This document shows, one piece after another, positions 34,014 through 36,562 of a DNA stretch of 64,000 nucleotides; the stretch's first letter is position 1; each line of letters begins with the position of its first letter. Made by a program: the position numbers and the translations under genes. Where the stretch lies: positions 204 to 64,203 of the forward strand of contig CAXHAT010000012.1 in the NCBI GenBank assembly GCA_964014485.1, read 5' to 3'. The notes beneath the pieces were generated by a model. That model did no database searches, was not told where the DNA came from, and saw only the letters and a program-made list of their open reading frames with translations. This DNA is from an uncultured Deferribacteres bacterium (GTDB lineage Bacteria; Zhuqueibacterota; Zhuqueibacteria; Zhuqueibacterales; Geothermadaptataceae).

Positions 34014-35270
34014 ATGGCTGACAACATCAATCTCGGTCGAGAACAGTTCGGGGATTTAAAGCACCGGAAAAATGTGCGCAATTTGTCTGACGAAGAGCTG
34101 GCGGATTTGCGGCGGGCGTTTGCCGGGGTATATGAGATTTCAGACAATCGCGGCTACCAGTATTTTGCCGGGCTGCACGGGCTGCCGCTGCCGTATTATT
34201 GCGAGCACGGCAACATGCTGTTTTTGCCCTGGCATCGCGCCTATCTTTATGCACTTGAGAAAGCGCTGCAGGAAATCGTTGAAGGCGTGACCTTGCCTTA
34301 CTGGGACTGGACTTCGGATCGCTCTATTCACAGCGGCATTCCCCGCGCTTACCGTGAAGGCCGAACGCCGGATGGCGCGCCGAATCCCTTGCGCAGCGCG
34401 GCGATTATGTACCCGGACGATCCCGATTGGATGACGCGCCGCGAACCGCGTCGCCCGCGAGAGTTGGAGCGCTATCGCAACGATGTGGACGAAGCTATGG
34501 AAACGGATAATTTTCATGTTTTTTCGCGCGCATTGGAGCAGGCGCACGGGGCTGTTCATGGTTGGGTCGGCGGCGATATGAGCACAATAAATTTCGCAGC
34601 TTATGACCCGATTTTTTGGGCGCACCATGCGTTTATCGACAAGCTTTGGGCGGATTGGCAGCGCACGCATCCCGACGCAAGCACGCCGAGACTGGATGAC
34701 GTTTTGGTCCCGTTCAACATGACGGTTGAATCGACTGTGAACTGGCGCCTGAACCTGGGCTATGATTATGTCGCCGATGAAGTGTTCGAAACGTGGGCGG
34801 CGGGCGAAACGGAAGTAGGCGTAACGAATTTCAACAACTCGAATACGCAGGTCACGTTGCCGCATCACGAGAAGGATTTCGATAGCGCGGTCATTGAATT
34901 TCACAACGTACACCCTCCGAAAGGTTCATACGAAGCGCGGGTTTTTATCAACGACGCAGACGCCGACGAAGAAACCGACGTCTACGACAACCCAAATTAT
35001 GCTGGGAGCTTTTACTTTTTCGGCCATGCTAAGAAGTGCAGCGGCGACAAGGGACATTGCGATATGCCGAAGCCGCAAAAGAAATTCGATATTCGTCCGC
35101 CGCACCATTTAACGCCGTACAAGCTCTACAAAAACGTAACCAAATGCCTGCAGGACGTTGGGAAGGACGAAGCAAATGTGTACGTGAAGATGGTTTGTGT
35201 TGACCGCTACGGTGAGCGATTGGAAAATCAGTTTAAGTGCGAAGGGATGTCCCTTGTTTATCGCGATTAA
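34014..35270 (+). CDS. Tyrosinase / polyphenol oxidase (type-3 copper protein)
   Basis: RBS 'aaaggag' lies 7 nt before ATG 34014. The CuA region is 'HGLPLPYYCEHGNMLFLPWHRAYLYALE...LPYWDW'. The CuB region is 'HGAVHGWVGGDM...DPIFWAHHAFIDKLWADWQ'. A C-terminal shielding-like domain is present. No signal peptide or twin-arginine motif was seen. Confidence 0.9.
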   Translation: MADNINLGREQFGDLKHRKNVRNLSDEELADLRRAFAGVYEISDNRGYQYFAGLHGLPLPYYCEHGNMLFLPWHRAYLYALEKALQEIVEGVTLPYWDWTSDRSIHSGIPRAYREGRTPDGAPNPLRSAAIMYPDDPDWMTRREPRRPRELERYRNDVDEAMETDNFHVFSRALEQAHGAVHGWVGGDMSTINFAAYDPIFWAHHAFIDKLWADWQRTHPDASTPRLDDVLVPFNMTVESTVNWRLNLGYDYVADEVFETWAAGETEVGVTNFNNSNTQVTLPHHEKDFDSAVIEFHNVHPPKGSYEARVFINDADADEETDVYDNPNYAGSFYFFGHAKKCSGDKGHCDMPKPQKKFDIRPPHHLTPYKLYKNVTKCLQDVGKDEANVYVKMVCVDRYGERLENQFKCEGMSLVYRD

Positions 35271-35434
35271 TCTTCGAGCTTGAATTCCTTTATGTCGCGG
35301 GGTTGTTTCAACTCTCAATTGACGGCAGAACAAATTCAAAAAATTTCAACGTCAGGCCAGGAAAGCGGATGTAAAAGCGTTCCGACGATTTATTGCATAA
35401 TGTCTCCGCCCAATTTGGCTTCGGGATATTTGGC

Positions 35435-36562
35435 ATGAACCATATTATTCGCAACAATAGTCCGCCTTGCGCAGTTGCGCACAAGCAGAAAAACCGTATA
35501 AGCGCCCAAGAAAGCCGTCTCTCAGGAGTGTTTGCTTTTGTCGCAGTTTTTTTAACTGGGTTGCTATTCTATTTATCTCCCATCGGCTCTCTACCTGGCT
35601 TCAATGACGGAATGAGCATCGGTCTCGCGTTTGTAGCCGGACTTCTGACAAGCACGCATTGCGTCAGCATGTGCGGCGGATTTGTGCTTGCATTTGCAAC
35701 GCAGTCGGGCGGGGTTGCGCGTCATTTTTCTTACGCTTTGGGGAAGACGCTCTCTTACGCAATTTCAGGTGCGCTTTTTGGCTGGTTCGGGCGTGCGCTG
35801 GCGATTTCTTCAACAATGCGCGGAACAGTCGGCGTTTTCTCCGGCATTGCGCTTTTGTTGTTTGGCGCGAGAATGCTGGGAGTGCTCCCAAACCCTTTTT
35901 CAAAAGTGCGTTCTTGCGGAAAAGGGCGCTTTCTGCCGATTTCACGCCGCCCATTTATGATTGGCTGTTTGAACGGTTTAATGATTCTGTGCGGTCCGCT
36001 ACAAGCGATGTATATTTTTTCTGCGACTCAAGCCGATCCACTAAAAGGGGCGCTGCTCTTGTTTTTCTTTGGTCTTGGCACGCTCCCGGTTTTGTTGATG
36101 TTCGGCTTGTCCGCTGGAAAAATGGCCCTGTATGTGCGTAAAAACGCAACTCGCTTGAGCGGCATTATTGTCATCGTTTTTGGGCTTTCCGCCTTGAGAG
36201 ATGGCTTAAATTTGTTGGACGTGAATTATTCCGTGAAGGTTCTGGCCGCAGATCGTTCAACCGCTTTAGGAGAGTTTCCCCCGACTGTTGATCAAGAGCA
36301 TCAAATCATTGAAATGCGCGTCGCGGCAGATGGTTGGCGTCCGGATTCTTTCATTTTACAAAAAGACAGGGCGGTGCGGTGGGTCATTTACGGCGATGAC
36401 TTGAACGTTTGCAATCAAGTTATCCACGTTCCAAAGCTTGATTTGGAAATTCGTTTGAAAAAAGGAAAAAACATCGTGGAGTTTACGCCTGGAAAAACAG
36501 GCGATTTGCAATGGAACTGTTGGATGGGCATGATGACGGGCGTATTCAAAGTGCGGGAGTAA
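35435..36562 (+). CDS. Multi-pass membrane protein (TauE/SafE- or DsbD-like, Cys motif) fused to a C-terminal cupredoxin-like domain
   Basis: There are several TM helices with 'TSTHCVSMCGGFV' in the first. The C-terminal 'IIEMRVAADGWRPDSFILQKDRAVRWVIYGDDLNVCNQVIHVPKLDLE...LQWNCWMGMMTGVFKV' resembles cupredoxin-like metal-binding domains. The start is uncertain (track 35393 TTG; ATG 35435). Confidence 0.6.
   Translation: MNHIIRNNSPPCAVAHKQKNRISAQESRLSGVFAFVAVFLTGLLFYLSPIGSLPGFNDGMSIGLAFVAGLLTSTHCVSMCGGFVLAFATQSGGVARHFSYALGKTLSYAISGALFGWFGRALAISSTMRGTVGVFSGIALLLFGARMLGVLPNPFSKVRSCGKGRFLPISRRPFMIGCLNGLMILCGPLQAMYIFSATQADPLKGALLLFFFGLGTLPVLLMFGLSAGKMALYVRKNATRLSGIIVIVFGLSALRDGLNLLDVNYSVKVLAADRSTALGEFPPTVDQEHQIIEMRVAADGWRPDSFILQKDRAVRWVIYGDDLNVCNQVIHVPKLDLEIRLKKGKNIVEFTPGKTGDLQWNCWMGMMTGVFKVRE

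Follow-up and report, generated by a model that had tools for sequence, protein, structure and literature searches.

The stretch analyzed here (64,000 nt; hereafter, the window) belongs to contig CAXHAT010000012.1 (assembly GCA_964014485.1) of an uncultured bacterium of the lineage Zhuqueibacterota, and its first 37.7 kb hold, on the + strand, a complete extracellular contractile injection system (eCIS). Near the 3' end of this operon lie two adjacent + strand genes, one encoding a two-domain, latent-type tyrosinase (418 aa; 34014..35270) and the other a membrane protein (375 aa; 35435..36562; hereafter, the partner) that joins a DsbD_2 protein of seven transmembrane (TM) segments to a C-terminal cupredoxin domain of the CupA type. 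The two genes represent a variant of the known pairing of a tyrosinase with a copper helper, in an unusual genomic home.

The tyrosinase gene starts with ATG at 34014, with an AAGGAG Shine-Dalgarno sequence 8 nt upstream, and its product matches PF00264 with an E-value of 6e-41 (141.6 bits against a cut-off of 22.6) over aa 53-224 (34170..34685, + strand). This region is a type-3 copper core, with H55, H65 and H74 at the CuA site and H178, H182 and H205 at the CuB site; in an alignment with 33 relatives, five of these histidines are invariant and the sixth, H65, is found in at least 90% of the sequences, and the site residues align with the copper sites of hemocyanins and tyrosinases. Also invariant among the 33 relatives is C63 of C63-E-H65, a thioether-type CxH motif at CuA; in fungal and molluscan type-3 copper proteins, such as abPPO4, this motif makes a thioether bond (PMC4157443). 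Among solved proteins, molluscan hemocyanin functional units come closest in sequence, and Streptomyces and Bacillus tyrosinases rank behind them. These conserved features identify the window protein as a type-3 copper tyrosinase with predicted phenoloxidase activity.

The AlphaFold2 (AF2) model of the tyrosinase (pLDDT 80.5) shows a helical core, a disordered linker (aa 256-285, pLDDT <50) and an all-beta C-terminal domain, with strands only across aa 291-417. We assign this beta-sandwich (aa ~286-418; 34869..35267, + strand) as a putative shielding domain, based on the model, on Foldseek and on a weak match of aa 293-408 to the C-terminal domain of plant polyphenol oxidases (PPO; PF12143, E 0.003, below the cut-off). 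The full-length Foldseek matches of the model are two-domain latent type-3 copper proteins (1js8, 5zrd, 7xio, 4oua_B, 3w6q), namely hemocyanin functional units, the tyrosinases of Burkholderia (BtTYR) and Ralstonia, latent mushroom PPO4 and Aspergillus pro-tyrosinase. The modeled fold thus supports a latent pro-enzyme, the active site of which would be capped by its own C-terminal domain. An earlier note, made from the sequence, had proposed a tyrosinase with both histidine-rich copper sites and a shielding-like C-terminal domain, and profile match, histidine conservation and modeling all bear this out.

The organization as a type-3 core plus C-terminal beta-sandwich is shared with molluscan hemocyanin functional units (1js8, 1lnl) and with the latent fungal pro-tyrosinases Aspergillus oryzae MelB (3w6q/3w6w) and Agaricus bisporus PPO4 (4oua/5m6b), as are the CuA CxH motif and a Cys loop in the C-terminal domain; together they are the top sequence and fold matches. 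Unlike these proteins, the window enzyme is bacterial, only 418 aa long, has a short linker and carries a C-x5-H-C loop, not CXXC. The loop, C342-S-G-D-K-G-H-C349 (35037..35060, + strand), is a candidate copper-receiving "grappler" of the C-terminal domain: C342, G344, H348 and C349 are invariant among the 33 family members, and the domain contains no CXXC. The CXXC loop of the fungal C-terminal domain has been implicated in copper insertion (PMC4157443), and the C342-x-G-x3-H-C349 loop is possibly its functional analogue. Many homologues of 260-298 aa (e.g., P0063, P0077, P0095, P0099) match the core alone (57-62% of the query) at ~50% identity, above the full-length relatives, and so the C-terminal domain appears to be separable across the family.

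The tyrosinase has no hydrophobic h-region in its first 60 residues and hence no signal peptide. The conserved fold begins after only ~16 residues, which are hydrophilic and modeled with low confidence, and this short N-terminus is kept in relatives with unrelated neighbors. A cryptic export signal was considered and rejected since, besides the missing h-region, the sole Arg-Arg pair ("LRRAFAGVYE") is part of a conserved, high-confidence helix of the fold and not a twin-arginine translocation (Tat) motif. The lack of an export signal claimed previously therefore stands.

For the partner, a TTG start at 35393 was rejected in favor of ATG at 35435 based on the N-terminal lengths of homologues. 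The protein matches DsbD_2 (PF13386) with E 3.7e-37 (128.6 bits, cut-off 24.9) and contains both THCVSMCGG (HCxxxCGG) and the C-terminal ...WNCWMGMMTGVFKV, in agreement with the multi-pass membrane protein with an HCxxxCGG motif and a cupredoxin-like C-terminus described in the earlier note. Two membrane motifs are invariant among 24-28 family members, H75-C76-V-S-M79-C80-G81 (HCxxMCG; 35657..35677, + strand) in TM1 and C186-G-P-L-Q190 (CGPLQ; 35990..36004, + strand) in TM4. The cupredoxin domain (aa 287-375; 36293..36559, + strand) is of the CupA Cu(I)-binding type, with C326, C362, M364 and M366 as the ligand set. That is, a profile of the partner family matches the CupA structures 2mry/4f2e (E 1.5e-15) and, in pneumococcal CopA, the metal-binding domain of the cupredoxin type (E 4e-9), and the window domain alone matches CupA (E 6.4e-6) with its ligands aligned to the Cys and C-x-M-x-M of CupA, which we take to be C74, C111, M113 and M115; the Cys plus C-x-M-x-M set is found in >90% of family sequences. 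Consistent with these matches, the modeled domain superposes on Streptococcus pneumoniae CupA (4f2e) with a TM-score of 0.90 (root-mean-square deviation 1.5 Å, 98 residues, 28% identity). Unlike CupA, which has a single N-terminal anchor helix, faces the cytoplasm and feeds the exporter CopA, the window domain sits at the C-terminus of a 7-TM DsbD_2 protein and is predicted to face outward.

Hydropathy gives seven TM segments for the partner, one extra helix preceding a six-helix core, and the stretches rich in Lys and Arg are residues 1-28, 151-173 and 235-242; the positive-inside analysis predicts an N-in/C-out topology with the cupredoxin domain extracytoplasmic. Relatives (~40% identity) usually carry an N-terminal HMA domain, and some have a C-terminal LysM domain or a GGCGCG tail; a C-terminal LysM fits an outside position of the partner's C-terminus. 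In P0122, P0123 and others, two CupA-like cupredoxin domains stand in tandem; the GGCGCG tail occurs in many proteins and LysM in those of Methylocapsa. The gene of one relative has a CopZ-like gene on one side and a CopA ATPase gene on the other, and proteins combining HMA and DsbD_2 (COG2836) belong to the CsoR copper regulon (PMC4938975). The DsbD_2-CupA fusion family counts 394 cluster representatives at E <= 1e-30, and in our literature search HMA plus DsbD_2 proteins were found only as passing, annotation-level mentions. Based on the homology to CupA with ligands kept, and on the copper-linked relatives, we consider the partner to be a copper-handling membrane protein. Given that its domain is predicted to be extracytoplasmic and that no CopA gene was found in the window locus, the domain would represent a CupA-like metal site, not a CupA orthologue.

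The pair recurs outside the window. In the L002 locus, a 400-aa protein of the partner's architecture (45% identical) is encoded 7 nt downstream of the tyrosinase (64% identical to that of the window), and in L188 (70% identity) the tyrosinase is followed after 4 nt by an open reading frame (ORF) that has the N-terminal tail of the partner and, right before the contig ends, the first part of the HC motif. Since neither context looks like an eCIS, the pair appears to be a self-contained module. The partner is absent from L001 (55% identity) and from ~180 more distant tyrosinase loci, and a profile hidden Markov model of the partner run on 189 tyrosinase loci detected none beside any tyrosinase beyond L002 and L188. 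A general linkage of tyrosinases with DsbD_2 proteins is thus rejected, both tblastn and the profile having found the partner only in the close clade; a metagenome scan for close tyrosinase relatives returned none above 45% identity. As for other neighbors, L002 has upstream, on the same strand and across a 44-nt gap, a phage-type holin (phrog_3427; PF11351) and a DUF5675/SH3_3 lysin-like protein (109-1274); in L187 (68% identity), an EryCIII/UDPGT-like glycosyltransferase gene (629-1843) ends 14 nt before the tyrosinase start, which could indicate a context of small molecules (phenolics) in this organism; and in L188 the upstream neighbor is an 88-aa protein with two TM segments. The eCIS leader described below is absent from the neighbors in L002, L187 and L188. 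With a CupA-homologous domain that keeps its four ligands, relatives linked to HMA, CopZ and CopA, and the pair itself conserved, the earlier suggestion that the membrane protein is plausibly a copper partner has gained ground.

PpoB1/PpoB2 and MelC2/MelC1 provide precedents for a tyrosinase with a dedicated copper helper (PMC2855505). As in the PpoB1/PpoB2 operon of Marinomonas mediterranea (PMC2855505), the window has two genes, a tyrosinase followed by a multi-pass membrane protein, in the window a proposed deliverer of copper. Unlike PpoB2 (COG5486), the window partner is a DsbD_2 protein (PF13386) with a CupA-type cupredoxin domain, and by this family assignment it is unlikely to be a member of COG5486; the setting inside an eCIS operon is also new compared to PpoB1/PpoB2. 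As in Streptomyces MelC1/MelC2, the helper would metallate the tyrosinase, and a protein element would fill the active site until maturation. In contrast to MelC1, a small soluble caddie that escorts MelC2 through Tat, the window helper is an integral membrane protein and no export signal is involved, and the C-terminal domain of the enzyme itself would serve as the shielding element.

Several observations indicate that the pair is likely co-transcribed with the eCIS operon. The pair lies on the operon strand, the next ORF (36566) begins 3 nt after the partner's stop codon on the same strand, no terminator is evident, and the composition matches, which together argue for co-transcription. More specifically, GC and GC3 of the pair are like those of neighboring operon genes, giving no indication of a recent transfer. 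The promoter and terminator scan around the pair was uninformative overall and found no convincing terminator; Rfam found nothing across 33500-38200, and there are no bracketing repeats of the mobile-element kind around the pair, the one inverted pair detected (20 nt, 85% complementary, at 33794 and 36437) being probably due to chance. The pair also adjoins lysis-type genes more than once: a CHAP-domain gene downstream in the window, the holin and lysin-like genes in L002 and possibly the small two-TM protein in L188.

The genes flanking the pair bear on whether the tyrosinase could be cargo of the injection system. A leader motif, H/L-Q-x-x-(M/L)-G-N-R-(A/S), is found in the two ORFs upstream of the tyrosinase and in the one downstream of the partner, so that leader-tagged genes on the same strand do enclose the pair, as had been noted. 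The first (28589..31906, +) encodes a 1105-aa DUF4157/eCIS_core cargo protein (PF13699, E 5.8e-31; leader at 28703), the second (31950..33854, +) a 634-aa cargo candidate, p31950 (leader HLQEAMGNRAFGQMLQAKF at 32073), and the third (36566..36958, +) a 130-aa protein (leader MHQQLGNRSVSQLAQ at 36677); the two upstream ORFs both carry HLQ(R/E)(S/A)MGNRAFGQM(V/L)QAK(L/F). The first 120-150 residues of the DUF4157 protein share 42-45% identity with the N-terminal regions of the DUF4157 proteins that related eCIS loci encode, and its DUF4157 core is also conserved in the syntenic eCIS relatives. From this conservation, the N-terminal leader is the predicted loading sequence of the lineage. It is absent from both the tyrosinase and the partner.

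AlgoCIS, which is of the DUF4157 type, does not load cargo that lacks the disordered N-terminal domain, and loading depends on an AAA+ ATPase; when the loading sequence was fused to other proteins, BlaM and Cre were loaded but sfGFP and mCherry were not, which the authors link to resistance to unfolding (bioRxiv 10.64898/2026.05.27.728243). Cgo1 and Cgo2, cargo proteins of AlgoCIS, consist of a disordered N-terminus, DUF4157 and an effector part, a description that fits 28589-31906 fully and 31950-33854 in part (no DUF4157 match); the tyrosinase occupies the same operon position as such cargo but has neither leader nor DUF4157. In the absence of a loading leader, and as a stably folded dicopper enzyme, the tyrosinase is not expected to be packed in the tube lumen.

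The comparative survey points in the same direction. On the tyrosinase side, 26 window proteins were searched by tblastn against 186 tyrosinase loci (2.28 Mb), and contractile injection system (CIS) genes were near the tyrosinase in only one (raw count), a locus of Actinoplanes sp. NPDC023936 (L027); a general linkage of the tyrosinase family to eCIS is hence rejected. In L027 (9300-11300), the tyrosinase lies ~200 nt from, and divergent to, the first gene of the CIS cluster, which is Pvc16-like, and a stop codon lies between its core and its C-terminal domain. With a Met following two codons after this stop, L027 may encode the shielding domain in a gene of its own, in the manner of a caddie. 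On the eCIS side, homologues of the window protein p26008 led to five distinct syntenic loci, including metagenome-assembled genomes (MAGs) of candidate division KSB1, and none of the five holds a homologue of the tyrosinase, DsbD_2, p31950, p36566 or CHAP protein. Besides small ORFs, their cargo regions contain a Peptidase_S74 fiber protein and either one or two proteins with DUF4157. The tyrosinase is also absent from two further DUF4157 loci. Scans of viral contigs with p27293, a fiber-like protein of the window, and with p31950 gave no match, and a scan with the DUF4157 alignment gave two loci only. Hence, the co-occurrence of tyrosinase and eCIS across genomes that the earlier note had proposed to look for was not borne out (1 of 186 tyrosinase loci, 0 of 5 eCIS relatives).

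In the searchable literature, no paper joins a tyrosinase with contractile injection systems, and the earlier statement that tyrosinase is not a recognized eCIS payload holds to that extent. Neither tyrosinase nor DsbD nor cupredoxin is listed in the supplements of a toxin-prediction paper of 2024, and in the part of the Pfam enrichment table of Geller 2021 covered here DsbD and Cupredoxin_1 stand at 0 and HMA at 2. By its position two genes downstream of the DUF4157 protein, within the 3' cargo region, the tyrosinase would pass as cargo under a permissive criterion; 3' position and proximity to DUF4157 are used by published toxin predictors (PMC8213781). Overall, the data suggest that the pair is carried along as a passenger or is an accessory released by lysis, rather than an injected toxin, and the earlier idea of an injected payload is unsupported in view of the missing leader, the survey counts and the AlgoCIS loading rules.

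We favor, with a probability of about 0.5, the interpretation that the pair is a self-contained module of an enzyme and a Cu(I) relay that was captured in the variable 3' end of the eCIS operon and is released only by lysis. Under this model, the tyrosinase would be made in the cytoplasm as a latent pro-enzyme. The outer CupA-like domain of the partner would capture Cu(I) via C326, C362, M364 and M366, the HCxxMCG and CGPLQ motifs would pass it through the membrane, and release would occur at the cytoplasmic face, where the partner has a short Cys-containing N-terminal tail in the place of the HMA domain of its relatives. From there, the tyrosinase would receive the copper, probably via the C342-x5-H-C349 loop of the C-terminal domain, and the latent enzyme would presumably be activated by proteolysis. 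The enzyme would exit the producing cell only when lysis sets the eCIS particles free; that is, a cytoplasmic enzyme expressed together with the products of a lysis-freed operon would be released alongside them. In this scheme, we infer the direction of copper flow, the hand-over at the Cys loop, co-transcription, release by lysis and proteolytic activation.

A few points weigh against the module interpretation. The CsoR regulon and the CopA neighbor of the partner's relatives fit export or detoxification equally well, and the outward position of the cupredoxin domain is a prediction from hydropathy and domain logic, with S. pneumoniae CupA facing the cytoplasm. Most signal-less members of the tyrosinase family have no partner, and thus a partner is not generally required. 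Further, the two window genes are 164 nt apart compared to 4-7 nt in the relatives and weak promoter-like sites are found near the partner start, which makes independent transcription possible. The lysis link, finally, is suggestive but involves three loci only, one of them with an unannotated small protein.

Alternatively, the pair might be an independent passenger with its own promoter that serves the physiology of the producer (melanin formation, phenolics), with no functional meaning attached to its position in the eCIS operon. Consistent with this scenario, close relatives (L001, L002, L188 and, next to the glycosyltransferase, L187) occur in contexts without recognizable eCIS genes, the pair is missing from the syntenic eCIS relatives, the intergenic gaps before the tyrosinase (159 nt) and between the two genes (164 nt) could house promoters, and intracellular tyrosinases with their own helpers are known (Yang & Chen 2009, cited in PMC2855505). 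It accounts less well for the nesting of the pair among same-strand leader-tagged genes with only 3 nt to the next one, for the lack of a terminator-like site bracketing the pair, for its operon-like composition and for the lysis-type genes that two close relatives also adjoin. We regard this scenario as tentative in itself, and yet nearly as likely as the module interpretation.

A second alternative concerns the partner, which could be a copper-detoxification or thiol-redox device of the CcdA/DsbD kind that is adjacent to the tyrosinase by chance and does not supply it. The partner does belong to the DsbD/CcdA superfamily, its relatives are found in CsoR regulons and beside CopA exporters, and a review of copper homeostasis that covers copper importers has zero mentions of DsbD (PMC7558416). 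Against this alternative stand the close spacing of partner and tyrosinase genes that the closest relatives conserve (the 4-7 nt gaps), the loss in this subgroup of the HMA domain that relatives use with CopZ/CopA, and the membrane motifs, which offer His, Met and three Cys instead of a two-Cys redox pair. Thus, we consider this alternative unlikely, although it deserves attention.

It appears improbable that the tyrosinase modifies the particle or its cargo, i.e., that it oxidizes eCIS tyrosines to DOPA or quinone, leading to cross-linking, hardening or cargo processing. The candidate substrate, the protein encoded at 3473-4768, has 7.0% Tyr and an acidic, disordered N-terminal half, and enzyme and substrate would share cytoplasm and lysate; but the enzyme is latent with its active site capped, the syntenic eCIS relatives assemble without a tyrosinase gene, and an enzyme-substrate link has no evidence of any kind. 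The least probable role is that of an injected effector, carried in the lumen or piggy-backed on a leader-tagged neighbor and producing quinones or reactive oxygen species, or interfering with melanisation, in the target: the 3' cargo position with DUF4157 or leader-bearing genes on either side (the toxin-predictor criterion, PMC8213781), the hydrophilic, low-confidence first ~16 residues and a dedicated copper supply that could pre-load an enzyme destined for export are outweighed by the missing system-specific leader, by the conservation of those ~16 residues in non-eCIS contexts, by the need of DUF4157-type loading for an N-terminal sequence and for unfolding (sfGFP and mCherry not being loaded), which would strip the metal from a dicopper enzyme, by the lack of phylogenetic linkage in either direction and by the silence of the searchable literature.

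Few cytoplasmic-membrane copper importers are known, and CcoA has been called the prototype (PMC7558416). The conserved pairing with a signal-less tyrosinase gives the DsbD_2-CupA family a concrete client, for which melanin formation would provide a simple color read-out of copper delivery. The pair also calls for caution in eCIS toxin prediction, having the position and the DUF4157 proximity that predictors use but lacking the leader and the co-occurrence with eCIS. If the tyrosinase were particle-associated, the eCIS payload repertoire would be wider. As a long shot, a tyrosinase pre-loaded with copper could be an eCIS effector, piggy-backed or co-released and acting as a phenoloxidase at the target, with the DsbD_2-CupA protein nested in this idea as an unrecognized Cu(I) route to cytoplasmic cuproenzymes; with a tyrosinase effector, if real, contractile injection systems would gain their first payload that is a redox metalloenzyme.

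The remainder of the operon (all on the + strand) has the gene content of an eCIS. It opens with an AAA+ ATPase of the Pvc15/Alg15 class (31..1758; PF00004, E 3.2e-32), presumed by analogy with the AlgoCIS study to be the cargo unfoldase and loader, and a Pvc16-like terminator (1755-2390), and continues with the sheath (4789-6390), three tube proteins (6455, 7534 and 9494), a gpD-like hub (10170), the spike (11300), gp25 (12403), two Baseplate_J proteins (12815-19930 and 19934-21874) and a P2_I baseplate protein (22794-24758). Two Cys-rich paralogues (24706 and 26008) follow 3' of the P2_I gene, and the fiber-like protein p27293 (27293) stands between these paralogues and the cargo region. The operon ends with the CHAP-domain ORF (36995..37738, +; PF05257, E 4e-8), a protein of the peptidoglycan hydrolase type that also weakly matches a PHROG endolysin. 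Beyond 37738, the operon gives way to a threonine aldolase gene in convergent orientation (38007-39023, - strand) and to ordinary genes of the chromosome. In the cargo region, p31950 has zero Pfam, PDB or PHROG matches, and PDB sequence searches gave no useful match for the CHAP protein either. The 36566-36958 ORF and the CHAP ORF are in one frame, separated by a single TGA (36956-36958), readthrough of which would yield a 391-aa leader-plus-CHAP protein; recoding of this TGA was rejected given that 17 of the 43 window ORFs end in TGA, and 36566-37738 may be a split or nonsense-interrupted, leader-tagged peptidoglycan hydrolase effector.

The layout of the cargo region differs from that of the relatives. 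In most of the related loci L190-L200, a Peptidase_S74 gene weakly like p27293 (in its N-terminal part) comes after the cargo genes, whereas p27293 comes before them in the window. Also, the cargo genes with DUF4157 number two in the relatives, as compared to a single one in the window, which has in addition a leader protein lacking DUF4157. The Cys-rich paralogues (24706-27273; 420 and 421 aa, 14 and 15 Cys, no Pfam family) share the N-terminal motif F/Y-x-G-x-L-L-x-x-R-D-x-Q-D-E-Q-x-Y; a search of 5.8 billion clusters yielded only 13 homologues, each of them located in a syntenic eCIS locus, the candidate division KSB1 MAGs included. Between the baseplate J and P2_I genes, the window encodes a 267-aa protein (21914-22717) with a lipoprotein-like N-terminus, 11 Cys, 6.4% Tyr and a weak match to a PHROG "minor tail protein"; zero genes are called between the corresponding baseplate J and Tail_P2_I genes of the syntenic relatives. 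The Tyr-rich protein at 3473-4768 (431 aa, 7.0% Tyr overall) is encoded between the Pvc16-like genes and the sheath gene; its disordered N-terminal half is extremely acidic and Tyr-rich with Lys/Arg clusters on either side, and its other half is coiled-coil. Outside the eCIS operon, 39407-40798 encodes a 463-aa protein without Pfam match that has several N-terminal membrane segments and a long, disordered C-terminal half rich in Arg, Ser and Lys, and a LanC-like (lanthionine synthetase C-like) protein is encoded near the window end (61556-62893).

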